Source: a virus
Lineage: Duplodnaviria; Caudoviricetes
Length of the DNA: 64,000 bases
Virus record (IMG/VR): IMGVR_UViG_3300032327_000953
Span: 128,001 to 192,000 of that record
Reading direction: 5' to 3' (one strand)
The translations under genes were made by a program, and so were the position numbers. Every line of letters begins with the position of its first letter. Positions within the stretch are counted from its first letter, which is position 1. This document shows, one piece after another, positions 668 through 10,845 of this stretch. Below the pieces are notes generated by a model, which had not been told where the DNA came from, searched no databases, and saw nothing but the letters and a program-made list of their open reading frames with translations.

Positions 668-673
668 TTTTTT

Positions 674-755
674 GTGTGTGCTTCTAGGTGGGACTAGACC
701 CTAATATATTATCCTTTCTTGTAACGGGTTGTTGGTTCAAATCCAACCACACACT
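674..755 (+). pseudogene. tRNA-like element with expanded or disrupted anticodon arm (possible Thr(TGT) remnant)
   Basis: Acceptor GTGTGTG/CACACAC, D-like stem TCTAG/CTAGA, T-arm GTTGG-TTCAAAT-CCAAC; 32 nt between D- and T-arms including CTTGTAA. Confidence 0.55.
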
Positions 756-757
756 TT

Positions 758-1261
758 ATGACTGCTTTTCAGGAAGAACTGGATGATTTTCGGCGTACCC
801 CAGACGGTAAAATCATTCAAGGGGCTGCTCATACTAGCAAAATATTAAATCACAAGTATAGAAATAGTGTGATTATCAAGGCTATCTGTTCTCTGCGTAA
901 GATTGAACAAGATTTTGATAGCATTGCTTGTTGTGGCGTAAGTGGTTTGATGGTTGTGCCACAAATTGCAGAGATTTTAAATAAGAATATTATAGTTGTT
1001 CGTAAAGGTGAGCGACGATATAGCGAATTCTTTATCGAAGGTGTTGCTCCGTCTAGTTATGTTATTGTGGATGATTTGATTTGTTCGGGTGGTACGGTTA
1101 AGCGTATTATGAATAATATTTATGATGATGTTCCGCGAGCAAAATGTATCGGTGCATATTTCTACATGGGTGAGGAGTGTGCCTACAACGCTTCCAATTC
1201 TAAACTTTTTGAGAAGCAGTTTGGGACGATCATCCTAAACCCTTACCAGCCAAAGACTTAG
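758..1261 (+). CDS. type I phosphoribosyltransferase-family protein
   Basis: PRPP-binding motif YVIVDDLICSGGT and IIVVRK loop. Confidence 0.8.
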   Translation: MTAFQEELDDFRRTPDGKIIQGAAHTSKILNHKYRNSVIIKAICSLRKIEQDFDSIACCGVSGLMVVPQIAEILNKNIIVVRKGERRYSEFFIEGVAPSSYVIVDDLICSGGTVKRIMNNIYDDVPRAKCIGAYFYMGEECAYNASNSKLFEKQFGTIILNPYQPKT

Positions 1262-1315
1262 GACAAGGTGGGGCGGCCCCGGTCGCCTTAAGTCCTTATC
1301 TGTCAACAACTTACG
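1234..1315. repeat. two copies of an imperfect 11-7-11 palindrome
   Basis: CCTAAACCCTT-ACCAGCC-AAAGACTTAGG (1234-1262) and CTTAAGTCCTT-ATCTGTC-AACAACTTACG (1287-1315). Confidence 0.75.
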
Positions 1316-1343
1316 ACCTGCGGAATTTTTCCAAAGTTTTCGC

Positions 1344-1372
1344 TTGACACTGCCGATAATATAGTGTAGAAT
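1344..1372 (+). promoter_or_regulatory. sigma70-type promoter with GCCGATA in the spacer
   Basis: TTGACA(1344-1349)-17 bp-TAGAAT(1367-1372). Confidence 0.8.
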
Positions 1373-1415
1373 CAGTGCATAAGAACGATTGAACAGCAAC
1401 ACGAAAGGGATGATT

Positions 1416-2366
1416 ATGGCTCATGCAGTTGAACAGATGATGTTTGTTGGTGCGACCCCGTGGCACGGTCTGGGCAATAAGCTCGACGAGGCTCCCACGG
1501 TTTCGGAGTCGATGACCGCTGCCGGTCTGGATTGGGAAGTCGGTCTGAAGGATTTGTTTACGGTGGACGGCCAGCCAGTTCCGGCCCGTGCTACCTATCG
1601 TAAGACTGACGACAGTATTCTGGGCGTTGTCGGCCCGCGATACACTCCGCTGCAAAACAGCGAAGCGTTTGATTGGTTCCAGCCGTTTCTGGACGCTGGC
1701 GAGTGCAATCTGCACACTGCCGGTTCGCTGCACAGCGGTCAGAAAGTTTGGGTTCTCGCCCAACTGAACCGCGATAACAGCGAGATCGTCAAGGGTGACG
1801 AAGTTTGCAAGTTTATCCTGCTGTCCAACAGCCATGATGGTACGACCGCGATCCGTGTCGGATATACTCCGATCCGTGTTGTGTGTGCGAACACGATGGC
1901 AATGGCCCACAGCAAGGGTAGTGGTTCCAAGTTGATCCGTATTCGTCACACACGTTCCAGCAAGAGCAATCTGGAAAACGTGCGAGATATTATGGATAAT
2001 ATCAATGCAGAGTTTGAGGCGACTGCGGAGCAGTTCCGATTTCTCGCGTCGAAGAACTTCAACCAGAATGACGTGCGTCGATACGTCAAGGTGATGCTCG
2101 ACATCGAAGGGACTGAGGATAAGGATATCAAGACCCGTACCCGCAACATCATGGATGAGATTCTCACCTTGGTGGAAGGCCCGAAGCAGAGTGCAACGGG
2201 TGTGCGTGGAACGTGGTGGGCCGCTTACAACGGCTTCAACGAGTACCTGAATTACAGCAAGGGTCGCACGACTGACAATCGTCTCGATTCTCTGTGGTTC
2301 GGCCAGAACGCCAACGATAACACGAAGGCTCTGGAAACCGCAATGAACTTTGCGAACGCCGTCTGA
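1416..2366 (+). CDS. DUF932 / TIGR03299-like phage-plasmid protein
   Basis: MAH...PWHGLG, AGLDWEV, LGVVGPRYTPLQN, TAGSL..G.KVW, LLSNSHDG...IRV..TPIRVVCANT, GTWWAAYN motifs; ATG 1416 after AAAGGGA. Confidence 0.85.
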   Translation: MAHAVEQMMFVGATPWHGLGNKLDEAPTVSESMTAAGLDWEVGLKDLFTVDGQPVPARATYRKTDDSILGVVGPRYTPLQNSEAFDWFQPFLDAGECNLHTAGSLHSGQKVWVLAQLNRDNSEIVKGDEVCKFILLSNSHDGTTAIRVGYTPIRVVCANTMAMAHSKGSGSKLIRIRHTRSSKSNLENVRDIMDNINAEFEATAEQFRFLASKNFNQNDVRRYVKVMLDIEGTEDKDIKTRTRNIMDEILTLVEGPKQSATGVRGTWWAAYNGFNEYLNYSKGRTTDNRLDSLWFGQNANDNTKALETAMNFANAV

Positions 2367-2390
2367 CCGGAGGGCTAAAACCCCACTCGT

Positions 2391-2733
2391 CGTAAGTCCT
2401 TTGCCCAAGGGGACTTATGGCGAGGCCGGCCGCGAGATTTCGTCCTAAGTTTAGTGCTGCCAAGGGTTTACGTCAATTTTGTCAAAGAATCTCATAAGTT
2501 CCCTATTCCCAAGGGGTTGCAATGACGATATAATGAATAGGACGCAAGTGCTTATCTGGCAAAGGGTTAGGATAAAATAGTAATAAGATTGTAATAATGA
2601 ATTGGATATTTTTCCATTTCTTATTTGTCTCGCCTAATCCAGCGGAATTACGGTCTTGGCGATAGTCAGCCGAAATACTGGTTATAATAACATAGCTCTC
2701 TGATCCTAAGTTCTTATGAGACAAGTAGTTGCG
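2391..2733. repeat. five further copies of the 11-7-11 palindrome
   Basis: Copies at 2391-2419, 2444-2472, 2493-2521, 2543-2571 and 2705-2733. Confidence 0.75.
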
Positions 2734-4452: not shown

Positions 4453-4603
4453 CAATATAATCATGGTTGATAATCAAAAGGGTCAGGAAGAACTTGTTTG
4501 ATTATAGATCATAAAGAAAAGATAAATCCCCCGATGCCTCTTAACAATGCACACTTTCGGGGGTCTTTTCTTGAATATACATTTTTTACTCAAGGAGGAA
4601 CTT

Positions 4604-4948
4604 ATGAAGATTTTTATAATGTCAATTGCACTAGTTTTTGTCATTACTTTTACCGCAGAGGCGGCTCGACCAAAATATTATAGTCAGTCAAATACTATGG
4701 TAGGAACTTATACTAGTAGTCATGGTTCAAGCAGTGATCAGGATCGTTGTCAAGCAGAGGCTAATCATATGGCAGCTAATAACATTACTGGTCATGTGTG
4801 GAGTGTTATTGGAAATTTTGAAGGAGTAGGTTATGGTTCGTCTCCCAATTGTAATACTTGTACTCCAAGTGGTAATATGAGACTAACAGGAGATGCTTCA
4901 GCAAAAGGTGGTAATGGTAAATGGTATAGAGTAAGGTCTTGGAGATAA
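4604..4948 (+). CDS. secreted Cys-containing protein, possibly a minimal CAP/SCP-like domain
   Basis: Signal peptide, GH...FEGVG...C..C...WYRV pattern; AAGGAGG RBS before ATG 4604. Confidence 0.55.
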   Translation: MKIFIMSIALVFVITFTAEAARPKYYSQSNTMVGTYTSSHGSSSDQDRCQAEANHMAANNITGHVWSVIGNFEGVGYGSSPNCNTCTPSGNMRLTGDASAKGGNGKWYRVRSWR

Positions 4949-4957
4949 TATCTTCAG

Positions 4958-5030
4958 GCAAGAGTAGCTCAATTGGCAGAGCGTCAGGTTTCCAACCTGA
5001 ATGTTGAGGGTTCGATTCCCTTCTCTTGCT
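4958..5030 (+). tRNA. tRNA-Gly(TCC)
   Basis: Acceptor GCAAGAG/CTCTTGC, anticodon arm TCAGG-TTTCCAA-CCTGA, T-loop TTCGATT. Confidence 0.95.
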
Positions 5031-5941
5031 TTTAATGTAATACCTAATGCTTTAGGTTTGGTTATTGATGTTATAGTCAGCACGATTTAAGATGATAGTG
5101 TAAAAATTTCGCTGGACCCTGGAATCCCCTATGGTATAATACAAGAGTCAACGGAGCCAATTATCAAGCATGGGTTAACTATGCGGGATAAATGGAATCA
5201 TGGGCAAAAGTGTTTTTAACTTTTAAACCATGAGGTGATTTATGAAAAGTAGATTAATAAGTTCGGACAATCGTATCGAGATTCAGAGAAAGTATATTGA
5301 TCAGATTCTGGGTGAATTAGATTTCATGCAGATCAAAGATAGATTAAGGGATTATCTAACTAAAGAAAAAGATAGATCATCCAACTACTCTTTAGAGTCT
5401 GAGATTAGGAAAGAAGCTCCTGAAATTTTAGTTGATAATTGGGAAGATTTCGATCAACCCGCAACATTAACTAGAAATAGGAAGAAAGACTTCCATTCAG
5501 ATGATCCTTCAGAAGAACAGGAGGAGTATCACCATGCCTAAAACTTTCCATAGAATTATTTCTTTTGAAGTAGAGGGTGAAATTTATGACAACTATACTA
5601 CTCCAGAAGAAGTTCTAAAAAGCTATGAGTGGAAATTTAAAGGATTTCACGACAATCATGAGGATAAATGTTTCTTAGAATCATCTCATGAAAATAGTCG
5701 TGGACGCATTACTAAAATAGTGCGAAAGAATAAAATCGGTAAGACCGATAAAGCGGATACAGAAACTTTTACAATTAAACAATGAGGTGCTTTATGAATT
5801 ATCAATTGCTATATTGGAGCGTTGGTGGATTAGTAACATTGTTAGCATTAGTATCACTATATTATTACTCATGCCATTGTTCTCCTCCAGCGATTAAATA
5901 ATAAGTTCTACTTGAGGCCAAACGCCCCAGGTATACTATAG

Positions 5942-5981
5942 ATAGGGGATCAGTCAGAAATGATTGGTCTCCTATTTTTTT
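5942..5981 (+). terminator. intrinsic terminator
   Basis: 15-bp stem ATAGGGGATCAGTCA/TGATTGGTCTCCTAT with GAAA loop followed by a T-run. Confidence 0.85.
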
Positions 5982-7283
5982 ATTAACTTTTGGGTAGCTT
6001 AAGCTTGGCTCACCTAAAGATATCGGGTCGATTTTTATGATAACAGTCAGTTGAAATTACTATGTTAGCTTTCAAAATATCAGAACAAATGAGTTGTGAC
6101 TCTATATGTATGCAAATTCAAAACTATATCAATAGCTATCAAAAAACTAATGGGGCCGGCTCTGCTACTGGTAAGATAATGAGAATATCTATTCAAGATG
6201 TGACAGATAGTGAAACGAAGAATGAAGTTCTTGGTATTGAGTTCAAAAATTAGTTGGTTGACAATAGCAAAAATATTTGTATTATAAGCTATATGTATTA
6301 GCTAAACTACCGGTTTCGGTTTTTATGGTAACAGTCAGTCAAAATTATACAGAAAGAATTATTATGGCTAAGAAAACATCCAGCAAGAATAGTAAAAAAT
6401 TTCCCAAGACTAAGACTCCTAAACTTAATAAGGTAGTAACTTCCAGTAAGGATGATTGTGATGGAGGAAGTTGTCCAATAGATAAAAAAAAAAAGAAGAC
6501 TATTGCCGCACAATCGGCACCAGTTGTTCCTCAAGTATCTTTGTGTTCAAGAGTCATGGCGGCTCTTTTCTTTTGGAAATAATATAGTGGCCTATGGATA
6601 ATTTAATACAAGATTTAGCCGGATTTATGATAGGATTAATAGTAGTAGAATCAGTAGTATATGTTGGCGCCTTGTATTTTATCTCTTACTTATCTAGGAA
6701 AGATAAAGATGATAGCTCAAATAATTTCCATAGTTAGAAAACCCATCTGTCCAACATTCATACATGACGATCCCACTCGCATATTCATAATACTCATAGC
6801 ACTACTACTACTCTCAGCCATAATGGCCAAAATTCTAAGGTATTTTAATGATACATAATGAACCACTCATTTTATATGGGCCACAGATAATTCTTTCCTG
6901 CATCATTCTCTGGTCAGCATTAGTGTTATATTTAGAAGAATACTTACATGAGGACGATAATTATGAGTAAATCAAAATTTGAAGAATTTCACGTTCCTTT
7001 CATTAAAAGTCTAGCTTTTGTGGGGCTAGTTACTATAGTTTCTATGATTTCTGTACGATATTACCTACTAAAATCATTTTCTCCACCATCAAATCCCACC
7101 ATTTATACCTCTACCAATTCGCCAATCAAGCCCAATTAAGGGTATTTTTAGCTAATATGAGCTATTTATCGGCTAATTGAAACTTAATTCACTTATTATC
7201 TTACGCCGTGGTGAAAATTAGAGTGTTACAGACTGAAATTATACCATAACTGGCTAAAGTTGTCAATCCCATTTTGTCGATAC

Positions 7284-7312
7284 TTGACAATGCCTTTACC
7301 TTGTGGTATGCT
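7284..7312 (+). promoter_or_regulatory. sigma70-type promoter, GTCGATA just upstream of -35
   Basis: TTGACA(7284-7289)-17 bp-TATGCT(7307-7312). Confidence 0.7.
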
Positions 7313-7550
7313 ACTGTTACTGATAGGGGTAAAAAGTTTAATTTTAGGCTGAAAAAGTGAGATTTGTTATGTATAAACAGATTCAATTAACCAATAGTGA
7401 ACTAGAACTTTTAGCTTCTATAATCCACCATTATATTCATGAAAAGCAGAATAAACCGGGCTTTGAAATCAACAATGCTCACATTATGCTAAGGCATATT
7501 ATTGGGATAAATGCCCAAAAAGACAATAATCAAATAGTGTTTAGTGGGAA

Positions 7551-7790
7551 ATGAACCCGGAATCAAAACAAATGAAAATTAATGAGTATATGTCTCTTGT
7601 TGCTGACTATATTGAGAATGAATATGGGCCAGATGAAGATTGTAAAGATTTAACTTTGGACGAAAAGTATGCGGTCAAAGAAATTCTAATGTCCCATTTT
7701 GAGTTGGATAATAGTATCAATAATGCAGCTAGTGATGTTATTAGCTACATTCGTGATAATAGGAAATGGATGAGGGAGAATATTAAATGA
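7551..7790 (+). CDS. hypothetical protein (paralog of 8673..8945)
   Basis: Shared ADYI..EYG and NSINN.A..V..Y motifs. Confidence 0.65.
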   Translation: MNPESKQMKINEYMSLVADYIENEYGPDEDCKDLTLDEKYAVKEILMSHFELDNSINNAASDVISYIRDNRKWMRENIK

Positions 7791-8425
7791 TTGATAATGA
7801 AACTCTACAAAATGTTGTTATTAAAGAATACGAAAAGTCTCAAAAGAATATTCAGCCAGTATGGGTGGGCGAAGGATGGTACAAGGGTACTCCTAATTCT
7901 TTTAACTATTTCTCTTCTGGATTTGAGGCGGGCATGGAGTTTTATAAGCAACAAAATAAGGCCGATAAATGAACAATAATCCAATCAATGTACAATTACG
8001 TCAGAATAATATACTAACCACACCGGGTTATTATTTAATGAAACGAACAATTGTTAATGGAAACCCATATCTGGCTCATGTAAGACCTCTTTTGTCAAAT
8101 AGTAAAGAATTACATTTGTTTTTCGGTATGAGCGGTTTTCCATTAAAAGATTTGGAAAAAGATGCTTGGTGGAGTGACCAAGTTTCTATAGATTTTACAG
8201 GAGATAAATAATGAGTAGCGTTGTAATCAAAGATAGTTATAAGGCTGATGTTTTTAATTTCGATATGGAATGTTGGAAGCAGGAAGATCCAAAGGGGGAG
8301 TTATTTAATTTGACCATAAACAATGTTATTAGTTGGGAATGGATGAAATTTAAGTTTACAAAAGAAGAGCTAAAGGGGCTTGCTAATTTTATCAATAGTT
8401 TTGTTGATGAATCACAGGATTCTTG

Positions 8426-8454
8426 TTGACAATTGCCGATAACGATGGTATGCT
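8426..8454 (+). promoter_or_regulatory. sigma70-type promoter with GCCGATA in the spacer
   Basis: TTGACA(8426-8431)-17 bp-TATGCT(8449-8454). Confidence 0.75.
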
Positions 8455-8672
8455 TACGATCAAGGAGATATATATGAAAAATGATCCGTTGGGTGAGGCT
8501 TGTCGTCATCTTGCTAATTCTCAGACTATTATTGAGAGAAAAAATGCAGAAATTGAGAGATTAAGATTAACAGACGAGGAACGCGATACTATATATTGGT
8601 CTGCTGAACTTGCTTGTGCTGATGACAATGATGAATACGCATTGAGAAAAGCATGGGTGCTTCAATCATTGC

Positions 8673-8945
8673 TTGAAAGAACAAAGAATTAAAATGAAAT
8701 CAAATAATCTTTCTTTTAATCAGTTTATGTTGGCTATTGCTGATTATATTGATGATGAATATGGGGGAAATCGGTCATATTCATTGAGGAATTTAACTCA
8801 TGATGAAAGATATACTATAAATCATATGTTGCATATTCATTATGAGAACTATAATAGTATAAATAATACGGCTAATAATGTAATGAAATATTTATCTGAC
8901 AATAAAGCTTGGACAAGTAAGAATGATATCATGGAGAATAATTAA
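8673..8945 (+). CDS. hypothetical protein (paralog of 7551..7790)
   Basis: Shared motifs as above; real start probably ATG 8694. Confidence 0.65.
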   Translation: MKEQRIKMKSNNLSFNQFMLAIADYIDDEYGGNRSYSLRNLTHDERYTINHMLHIHYENYNSINNTANNVMKYLSDNKAWTSKNDIMENN

Positions 8946-10209
8946 TGAACGATAAACTGAAAAGTAATATCAGGAACTTTATTGTGGATTATGATAATAC
9001 TGTGAGTGATTTTAATATGGCCGATTATGATTTGTGGCTTGAGACTGCTGTTAATCTTTTAAAGGAAGTTTTGGAGAATAAATAATGACTAATCTACCAG
9101 AAATAGACAAAATATCAGTAATGAATCTGAAACCAGACGATATACTAGTTTTTAGTACCTATGATAAAATAGCTAGTAGTGTTTATTCAAGAATAGACCA
9201 AAAAATAACCGATTGGAAAGCCCAAAACAATATAAAAAACAAACATTTGATACTAACCTCTCTAAAACTAGAAGTATTATCAAAGGAACAGACTCAAAAA
9301 CTGGAAAATAACTAATGACTAGATTAAATTTGGATTTGACAACTAGACAGATTAATCTTTTATTTGAAAGTTTGGAAACATTACAGGCTTACTACAAGAC
9401 AACTAATACTAATACTATAAATGTTGAACGGGAAATTATTAATTTTACTAGGTATTTGGACAGTAAAGTATTTAAAGGAGAATAAATATGGCTGGACTTG
9501 TATTGTTTGGTATACTAGGATATATGGCTTGTATACGAATTTATGATTGGTGGAATGGATATGGGGATTTATTTTAATGGTAATGAATATCAAAAAAGAA
9601 TTACAAAATCTTGACCGTAATGATTTTATAGCAGTTTCACAACTTACTGATATGATAATATTTGATCTTACTGATCTTCTTATTATTGGGGGAGATGAAG
9701 TTATGTTGTCTGCCGCAAAAGACTATATGATTGACCTTATTAATCCCAACCTATTAGATTTTGATTCAAGTGAGTCTTGACAACATCCGATAAGGATGGT
9801 ATGCTTACTGGCAAAGAGATAACCAATGACCCTGCTAAGAACTCTGAATCTTGAATACGATCTTGTTGAGATTCATTATAATGAGCTTTTGAAGAATAAA
9901 CCTTACTTGGTGAGGGTTTTCTCATATAATAATACTGATCCCAGCGAACTACGTCTGGATGAAAAAGAAGTAAAAAATCTATATCAAACCCTTAAAGAAC
10001 ATGAGCTATTATGAAACCCATAATTTTAACAGATAAAGAAATTGAAGCGATTGAGTGGTACGCAAATTTTCACGACGGGATACATCGTGACACACTCCGC
10101 AATCTACTTGAAAGAATAAAGGATAAATAATGAGTATTCCATATAAAGGAAACTGTGAACATCTCAAAGAAGGATATTGTATAGCTTGCATATCCAAGAT
10201 TAGAGATAA

Positions 10210-10845
10210 TTGGGGTGGATTTTAATAATGAATAATTCAGATATTGTATTGGTAAGTGGTCATTGGCCGCTTACTGTTGAATTTGCTAATAAAACTAGAC
10301 AGAGCATACAGAATTATGCCAATTTGCATAAATATGATTTTCATTATGATGAAATAGAACCAATTGAAAAAGAAGTTTCAGCATTACATTTTAGGAGATG
10401 CAATATACTGCAAAGAGCATCAATAAAATTTCCAAATGCAAAATGGTATGTTTGGCTTGATACGGACATTTTTGCATACAGAACAAACCTAAAGATAGAA
10501 TCAGCAATAGATTTGTCAGATACCAATATTTTATATCATCTATTTCATGAAAAGCCTTGGACTTACTGTGTAAATACTGGAGTTAAATTTGTAAATCGTA
10601 ATGCTATTCAAATTGAATCAAATATATGGAATTTAAGAAATGAACCTGGATGTAATGAATTTCCATATGAACAAAAAGTAATGTGTGAAAAAATTATACC
10701 AAAATATCAAGATAGAATTAAAATACATGATCCTTATATTCTAAATTGTATAGAACAATTGTATCCTATAAATAATGCTATATTTGTTCATATGTGTTAC
10801 AGAAAAGAAAAAGAACGCAATCATTTGATAAATAAATTCATTTAG
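10210..10845 (+). CDS. GT-A glycosyltransferase (GT34/nucleotide-diphospho-sugar transferase-like)
   Basis: WYVWLDTD (DxD) motif, VNTGV, YEQ motif. Confidence 0.65.
   Translation: MGWILIMNNSDIVLVSGHWPLTVEFANKTRQSIQNYANLHKYDFHYDEIEPIEKEVSALHFRRCNILQRASIKFPNAKWYVWLDTDIFAYRTNLKIESAIDLSDTNILYHLFHEKPWTYCVNTGVKFVNRNAIQIESNIWNLRNEPGCNEFPYEQKVMCEKIIPKYQDRIKIHDPYILNCIEQLYPINNAIFVHMCYRKEKERNHLINKFI

Follow-up and report, generated by a model that had tools for sequence, protein, structure and literature searches.

Seven imperfect palindromes of 29 bp lie around a DUF932 gene near the start of a 64,000-nucleotide stretch of uncultured phage DNA (the window; bases 128001-192000 of the 238,135-bp record IMGVR_UViG_3300032327_000953, here G000, which is classed complete, with terminal repeats). 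The palindromes are real but not specific to DUF932, and are a partial view of a larger system of 15 modules of identical geometry that occupies ~18 kb of the phage genome (genome 112742-130472); position-weight and consensus scans of the whole genome found no module in the other 220 kb. Each module is an 82-bp double box, defined by alignment of the 15 junctions as a 29-bp box (H1), a 24-bp linker (~80% G+C) and a second 29-bp box (H2). The module starts at, or a few bases from, the last stop codon of the preceding block of small early genes, and H2 is followed by an A/T-tract spacer of 18-79 nt, a promoter of the form TTGACA-17-TAGAAT, a ribosome-binding site and two to five small genes, most cassette genes being without a known family. 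Promoters of this sigma70 type are located 18-79 nt past nine of the G000 modules and 166 modules overall, and CGATAATA is conserved within the -35/-10 spacer of the early promoters. The array region has a G+C content of ~43% compared to 33% genome-wide.

At roughly even odds (about 50%), the modules are protein-bound boundary and upstream elements that stand in helical register with each early promoter, with cassette shuffling as a by-product and DUF932 as a bystander. The double box would provide a docking site, in double-stranded DNA, for a dimeric and probably pairwise-cooperating sequence-specific protein, and would mark where one early transcription unit ends and another begins, upstream of the next strong host-type promoter by a whole number of turns. 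The bound protein may shield neighboring strong promoters from read-through, may modulate the downstream promoter from a single helical face, or both, and the same protein may switch the promoter-like sites that are overlapped by single boxes in the tail of the array. Since planctomycete and verrucomicrobial chromosomes also contain the box, the binder may be a host factor, but an early or virion protein of the phage is just as possible. In addition, the similarity of the 15 modules would make them patches of homology where related phages gain, lose, duplicate or exchange cassettes.

The seven elements were described in a sequence-only reading of the window with starts at 1234, 1287, 2391, 2444, 2493, 2543 and 2705, and all are found at these coordinates, with the start-to-start spacings of 53, 53, 49, 50 and 162 bp reproduced. 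Inverted arms are present as claimed, but the palindromic character is uneven, with 8, 8, 8, 4, 3, 5 and 7 Watson-Crick pairs per 11-bp arm, respectively. Four copies (1234, 1287, 2391 and 2705) have at most 3 mismatches in 18 to the symmetric consensus, compared to a mean of 0.00 such copies in 100 shuffles. The three weaker copies (2444, 2493 and 2543; 4-6 mismatches) are counted as real because the same elements occupy the same positions in five complete relatives. The statement that no copies occur elsewhere in the window is correct but misleading, since the window begins near the end of the array and 26 more boxes lie just upstream as 13 pairs (genome 112742-127754, within the 15.3 kb that precede the window), all 53 bp start to start. 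The 53-bp spacing arises inside one 82-bp module (29 + 24 + 29) and is not the distance between independent sites.

The boxes are conserved in sequence rather than in structure. Arms and stem positions were compared in 193 modules, which comprise 108 oriented by their promoter and those of six genome arrays. The four arms differ in consensus (H1 left, C-S-TAA-R-Y-CCTT; H1 right, AAGGACTTAGG; H2 left, CGTAAGTCCTT; H2 right, AAC-R-ACTTA-S-G), and this asymmetry is consistent once the promoter sets the orientation of the module, which thus has a polarity. The variable stem positions have zero or negative covariation, and several of them pair in the Watson-Crick manner significantly less often than shuffled partners do. 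An A.C mismatch is seen at position 6-24 in 103 of the 193 copies, and position 62-74 is unpaired in 132, mostly as C.C. The 7-bp centers (positions 12-18 and 65-71) hold less than 0.8 bit each, most of them less than 0.3, and differ among all 15 modules. Mean hairpin energies are -5.3 (H1) and -3.8 (H2) kcal/mol, the GC-rich linker folds no better than its shuffles (z = 0.1), and RNAalifold of the 15 modules gives ~-1 kcal/mol on either strand, with only the two inner arms paired and no compensatory changes. A terminator scan made no call at any module, the bases after H2 are A-rich with no U-tract past the boxes, and Rfam finds no family at the modules or at the host boxes, its only matches elsewhere being to tRNAs and one abiF RNA. 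In more distant phage clades the full 29 bp, center included, are a near-perfect palindrome (CGTAAGTCGTTGA-nnn-TCAACGACTTACG). A sequence-specific site in double-stranded DNA is thus favored by the distinct arms, the lack of covariation, the variable centers, the weak folding and the palindromic form in distant clades. A mini-CRISPR array or anti-CRISPR repeat mimic (29-nt repeat, 24-nt spacer, 29-nt repeat) was considered and rejected, as the host copies are dispersed singles.

Phasing is evident both within the module and toward the promoter. An exact-pattern scan finds the box in at least 117 viral contig loci that hold 372 box pairs, with spacings of 53 bp (237 pairs), 52 (42), 50 (26), 42 (25), 51 (15) and 41 (7). 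The 53/52-bp class (279 pairs) and the 42/41-bp class (32 pairs), which together include 311 of the 372, are one helical turn apart. Across 166 distinct modules, the -35 hexamer lies at quantized distances of ~18, 28-29, 39, 50 and 61 nt from the H2 end, with a Rayleigh R of 0.52 at an 11-bp period (p ~1e-13) after the modules are collapsed to 110 clusters by downstream-sequence similarity. An RNA element or a mere homology patch would not need to be in register with the next promoter, whereas a protein that touches RNA polymerase or shapes the upstream DNA would. The earlier suggestion of phased sites for a dimeric protein is therefore strengthened by the conservation of sequence and not structure, by spacings of whole helical turns (53/42 bp) and by the phasing to the next promoter.

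The five complete relatives (223-233 kb) have arrays of 14-23 modules. When each cassette is assigned to a family, the order A A A I D E J F G H C B B K (K being DUF932) is largely kept among the six arrays, and the differences are insertions, losses and duplications of whole cassettes. In comparisons of G000 with the five relatives, identity is 0.82-0.96 on one side of many junctions and at background (0.6 or less) on the other, and at two junctions the flanks are joined to different modules in the relative. Segments aligned by blastn between relatives often terminate within modules. Against the nearest relative, one half of the modules that are orthologous by position have an identity of only 62-73%, no higher than paralogues, although the coding flanks are ~88% identical. 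These comparisons support homologous exchange at the modules. The term cassette, as used in the sequence-only reading, is thus apt in the looser sense that homology-driven reshuffling occurs at the modules, but not for DUF932 as a mobile unit. Among GenBank phages, no DNA match was found to the array region or to a module.

Within the arrays, DUF932 is a fixed and conserved member and not a mobile one. The protein is 78-94% identical in the five complete relatives, and its gene has the same flanks in each (a module and promoter before, a module after). Family K is last in five of the six arrays, and in the sixth (G003) the closing module falls below the pair threshold. A mobilizable DUF932 cassette, as had been proposed, is at odds with a position and flanks that are constant in five of five complete relatives, in four of which, those with a detected closing module, DUF932 is the last cassette. 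A recent horizontal transfer of the GC-rich DUF932 gene was also considered and rejected, as the whole array region is GC-enriched and the gene is kept in place in all relatives. The proposed link between the palindromes and DUF932 fails more generally: 14 of the 15 modules flank other genes, the unrelated DUF932 loci of Methylophilales phage Melnitz and Sinorhizobium phage phiM12 are free of the box, and box-rich planctomycete and verrucomicrobial genomes have no DUF932. Neither is there an origin or terminus signal at DUF932, where a genome end or origin had been suggested; cumulative GC skew reaches its minimum at ~105 kb, and the ends of the contig, with their 123-bp repeat, are elsewhere.

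The AlphaFold2 (AF2) model of DUF932 (mean pLDDT 92.4) has an N-terminal alpha/beta domain and a helical C-terminal domain. Foldseek returned no match at E <=0.001, and the best VIA match (Z 7.2) covers a helical sub-part and is inside the noise range stated for the tool. The model thus gives no sign of a DNA-binding or recombinase fold, although a missing match proves nothing. A metagenome search yields at least 8000 DUF932 homologues; the relatives include no solved structure, and no paper was found that assigns a function. The boxes say nothing about the function of DUF932, for which the result is negative. In the 595-kb uncultured phage LR756511, weakly box-like sequences with 3-4 mismatches (L297 38-66, 394-422 and 2684-2712) flank a 48%-identical DUF932, which may be a very distant version of the box-flanked arrangement.

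The box is also an element of bacteria of the Planctomycetes-Verrucomicrobia-Chlamydiae (PVC) group that is common to these phages, and the phage host is probably a planctomycete. A prokaryote scan with one genome per species finds at least 120 loci, and ~30% of the matches listed are from Planctomycetota. Whole-genome counts at <=3 mismatches, with the reversed pattern as control, are 27, 20, 12, 63 and 47 in five planctomycete genomes (control 0-4), 10 in one Verrucomicrobiae genome (control 1) and 1-5 in single genomes of Bacteroidota, Gemmatimonadota, Acidobacteriota and Alphaproteobacteria (control 1-2). Among 81 sampled Planctomycetota genomes, 66 matches at <=2 mismatches compare to 7 of the control (~9-fold). 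Boxes outside of the PVC group were rejected, as their counts are at the control level and the matches of the collection scan are chance hits to ordinary hairpin-plus-T-run terminators after tRNA genes.

A number of host copies match the phage H2 consensus almost exactly, even in the asymmetry of the arms, and host copies occur in diverse settings. In a metagenome-assembled genome (MAG) of the Phycisphaerae, the box is inside a ~150-nt multi-copy intergenic repeat that is mostly 100-250 nt past gene ends. A Verrucomicrobiae chromosome has seven near-identical copies of a repeat of >330 nt (L265-L271), each with one perfect box and the sequence TTGACT-17-TTCAAT 17 nt further on. In Adhaeretor mobilis, an ATP synthase operon (atpI-like gene, subunit a) and a DUF4912/Rho_N gene diverge from a 480-bp region that contains four boxes (L294 6213-6547). 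In five planctomycete genomes (L134, L244, L153, L171 and L186) a perfect-stem box is located 3-11 nt past the 3' end of the transfer-messenger RNA (tmRNA; ssrA), and in two of the ssrA cases the box follows a mere 20-nt ssrA 3' fragment, similar to the far end of an ssrA-integrated island. A role of the host boxes as upstream promoter elements was rejected: 196 boxes have 16 sigma70-like sites within 110 nt, and the few phased ones are phage-like contigs binned into MAGs.

Several points weigh against the modules as protein-bound boundary and upstream elements. The presence of a DUF932 homologue in nine of nine near-complete box-bearing phage records makes a phage binder inseparable from shared ancestry. 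The 10-11-bp steps of the spacer could come from slippage of A/T-tract units rather than from selection, and the modules of related phages, which share ancestry, are not fully independent even after clustering. The real host copies are mostly single, with no sigma70-like promoter at phased distances from them, and the role of the box in hosts may differ from that in phages. Several host copies are, moreover, perfect hairpins 3-11 nt after tmRNA genes, a position that suits an RNA or terminator role.

In a further variant, less likely than not, the box would be the site of an undescribed DNA-binding factor of Planctomycetota and Verrucomicrobiota, and large phages of these bacteria would have copied this site into phased double boxes that divide the early region into insulated cassettes, each with its own promoter, and control them. 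It is somewhat unlikely that the modules are instead composite terminator/promoter cassettes of the PeSL (promoter-early stem-loop) type, with a selected role as dispersed homology for early-gene shuffling and possibly for mini-circle excision. The placement of modules between blocks of small, mostly ORFan early genes and beside sigma70-type promoters agrees with this explanation, as do the whole-cassette gains, losses and duplications among the six arrays, the many homology breaks at modules and the positional orthologues that are, in half of the cases, as unlike as paralogues. By contrast, PeSL stem-loops are stable and terminate transcription, whereas the hairpins here are weak and the linker is self-complementary no more than its composition predicts; conservation of the box in distant phage clades and hosts is unneeded for homology patches, cassette order is largely collinear among relatives, and promoter phasing is left unexplained. 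It is unlikely that the boxes work as hairpins of RNA or of a single strand, whether as terminators (factor-independent or unusual), as processing sites or as stabilizers of the 3' end of the upstream transcript. Such a role would fit boxes directly past stop codons, planctomycete stems near tmRNA ends that are perfect with compensated inner positions, a Phycisphaerae repeat that mostly follows gene ends, and near-perfect palindromes in distant phage clades. The phage stems, however, have frequent A.C and C.C mismatches on the transcribed strand without covariation, mean folding is -4 to -5 kcal/mol with no U-tract, terminator call or Rfam family, and helical register with the next promoter is not required of an RNA element.

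The spread of selfish palindromes, similar to repetitive extragenic palindromes (REP) and REPINs, into planctomycete chromosomes and phages by host Y1 (RAYT-type) transposases is very unlikely as a general explanation, although such spread is possible in some genomes and not in all. The boxes are 29-bp imperfect extragenic palindromes that form doublets in phages and reach dozens of copies in hosts, in some of which they are inside longer multi-copy repeats that break assemblies; Y1_Tnp genes number 7-18 in three planctomycete genomes, and REP families are reported in PVC bacteria (PMC3733652). The boxes begin with CGTAAG, however, and the GTAG/CGTC tag is missing; the phage array positions are syntenic across relatives with fixed orientation and phasing to promoters; and no Y1 transposase is found in the phage, with weak or no Y1_Tnp matches in two box-bearing genomes (G010 and G012). 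The idea that the boxes are binding sites of DUF932 itself or tyrosine-recombinase core sites (Xer-like or integron-like), and that they make DUF932 mobilizable, follows the sequence-only reading; it is largely refuted and has only a slight residual probability. The 11-7-11 geometry suits core sites, and DUF932 co-occurs with boxes in all of the near-complete phage records. Against this, the differing central 7 bp would block ordinary strand exchange, and searches of the complete phage genome for integrase, resolvase, Y1 transposase and ParB families were negative. As for DUF932, it has one conserved position, other DUF932 loci are box-free, box-rich hosts are without it, and its model has no recognizable DNA-binding or recombinase fold.

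Of known systems, the closest kind is the PeSL cassette, of which the modules are a new variant and not a member. PeSLs are dispersed, conserved intergenic motifs of T4-like phages with strong sigma70-type early promoters and variable small early genes, and indels and replacements between related phages end at these motifs (Arbiol 2010, PMC2839356; Comeau 2014, PMC4122927). The modules share the early promoter beside the motif, the plastic ORFan-rich region and the indels or homology breaks at the motif. A PeSL is a single stem-loop with G/C tracts, in overlap or contact with the promoter, for which termination of transcription was shown; the module is instead a fixed 82-bp pair of sequence-conserved boxes with a weak hairpin and no scanner-called terminator, located 18-61 bp from the -35 hexamer and common to host chromosomes. 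The T4 capsid family (Gp23) was searched for without a match in the phage, and the control genomes gave none either. REP super-families are defined by a GTAG or CGTC tag (PMC3733652), whereas the box consensus begins C-[G/C]-T-A-A-G. The boxes resemble REP, BIME and REPIN elements in being short, imperfect palindromes outside genes that often form doublets with a defined linker and are multi-copy in chromosomes, and the roles proposed for those elements (termination, mRNA stability and protein binding) are likewise proposed for the boxes. They differ in having syntenic positions and a fixed orientation and helical register to promoters, and in the lack of a RAYT (PF01797) match in the phage, the hosts being mixed in this respect.

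Phased activator or operator sites upstream of promoters are known from Fis at rrn P1 and from CRP class I sites (-61.5 and -72.5). The modules are similar to these in that palindromic dimer sites are whole helical turns upstream of the -35 hexamer with A/T-tract DNA between; by contrast, the module is double, spans 82 bp and also adjoins the end of the gene before it, a placement suggestive of an additional boundary role, and its binder is only postulated. Sites such as dif, loxP and attC have ~11-bp inverted arms and a ~7-bp center, and the 11-7-11 form is found in all box copies, but the centers vary between copies where recombination sites have identical overlaps. Searches for Phage_integrase and Resolvase, which were positive in control genomes, had no match in the complete phage genome; a host Xer could act in their place, and no sign of site-specific rearrangement was found. 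A parS or iteron array is likewise a poor fit, as the phage has no ParB_N match and the array is spread over 18 kb between genes. Intrinsic (Rho-independent) terminators have a G+C-rich hairpin followed by a T run, whereas no terminator was called here and A-rich sequence follows H2.

Very little is known of the first minutes of gene expression in large uncultured phages, and in a phage group that is common in metagenomes every early transcription unit has the same phased double box. Should the box be bound by a protein, it would offer a route to a global early-gene regulator or insulator. The box in planctomycete genomes hints at a host for a phage group without an assigned one. The modules may also be a second, differently built instance of the principle behind PeSLs, namely regulatory repeats that at the same time serve as recombination joints of early genes. 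If an undescribed host factor is indeed the binder, the box would be a class of cis-element common to host and phage, with no described counterpart.

Within the window, the last gene of the cassette that precedes module 14 is an open reading frame (ORF) at 758-1261 (+) that is phosphoribosyltransferase-like (Pfam PRTase-CE and Pribosyltran, both below the cut-off) and has its final 28 nt in overlap with box H1. Box scans and the junction alignment place this H1 at 1234-1262, with a left arm of the 'TAAACCC' type and the right arm AAAGACTTAGG, the 24-bp GC-rich linker at 1263-1286 (junction alignment) and box H2 at 1287-1315. The A/T-tract spacer to the -35 hexamer (1316-1343) is 28 nt and belongs to the 28-29-nt phasing class. 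The early sigma70-type promoter TTGACA-17-TAGAAT at 1344-1372 (+; 11/12 matches by the scanner) carries CGATAATA in its spacer and precedes the DUF932 gene of the last cassette (1416-2366, +; 316 aa, 55% GC; Pfam PF06067, E 4e-50). Module 15, the last full module (2391-2472), follows, with H1 at 2391-2419, the linker at 2420-2443 and a degenerate H2 at 2444-2472. A CGATA(A/C)TA block occurs in the -35/-10 spacer of every early promoter (window 1355-1362; genome 112.9-129.4 kb) and could represent another protein site or a sub-element of the promoter. Five module-to-promoter spacers (genome 112.8-118.6 kb; L001 ~4860-10560) have a mini-palindrome, CCTTAC-N6-GTAAGG, that corresponds to the box with its ends swapped.

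The closing module is followed by a non-coding tail of ~500 nt that is conserved in relatives and has one to three extra single boxes. A promoter-like site, TTCCCA-17-TATAAT (2506-2534, +; 10/12 matches by the scanner), whose -10 block is conserved in relatives, has its -35 hexamer and some of its spacer within tail box 1 (2493-2521). Tail box 2 (2543-2571), directly past the predicted start of this promoter, is conserved in all six genomes. The right end of tail box 3 (2705-2733) provides the -35-like TTGCGT of a second promoter-like site with an extended -10 (TTGCGT, 17 nt, TGgTATACT; 2729-2757, +; -10 at 2752-2757), which was recognized by eye but not by the scanner, and its GTGGTATACT block is conserved in the five relatives. 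The tail boxes are thus in operator-like positions, and one protein may act both upstream of the early promoters and directly on the tail promoters.

Three minor features were noted in and around this region. A short repeated motif, (A/T)AGTAGTCAGC, occurs at window ~101-111, 2661-2671 and 2850-2860, and its tail copies are conserved in related phages. The abiF RNA match of Rfam (window 4528-4564, +; 38.3 bits compared to a gathering threshold of 37, E 2e-4) overlaps the start (4547) of the ORF at 4547-4948. A tRNA-like sequence at window ~672-757 (+), with the acceptor GTGTGTG/CACACAC and a GGTTCAAATCC T-loop, was called by neither ARAGORN nor Rfam and may be an interrupted or degenerate tRNA.

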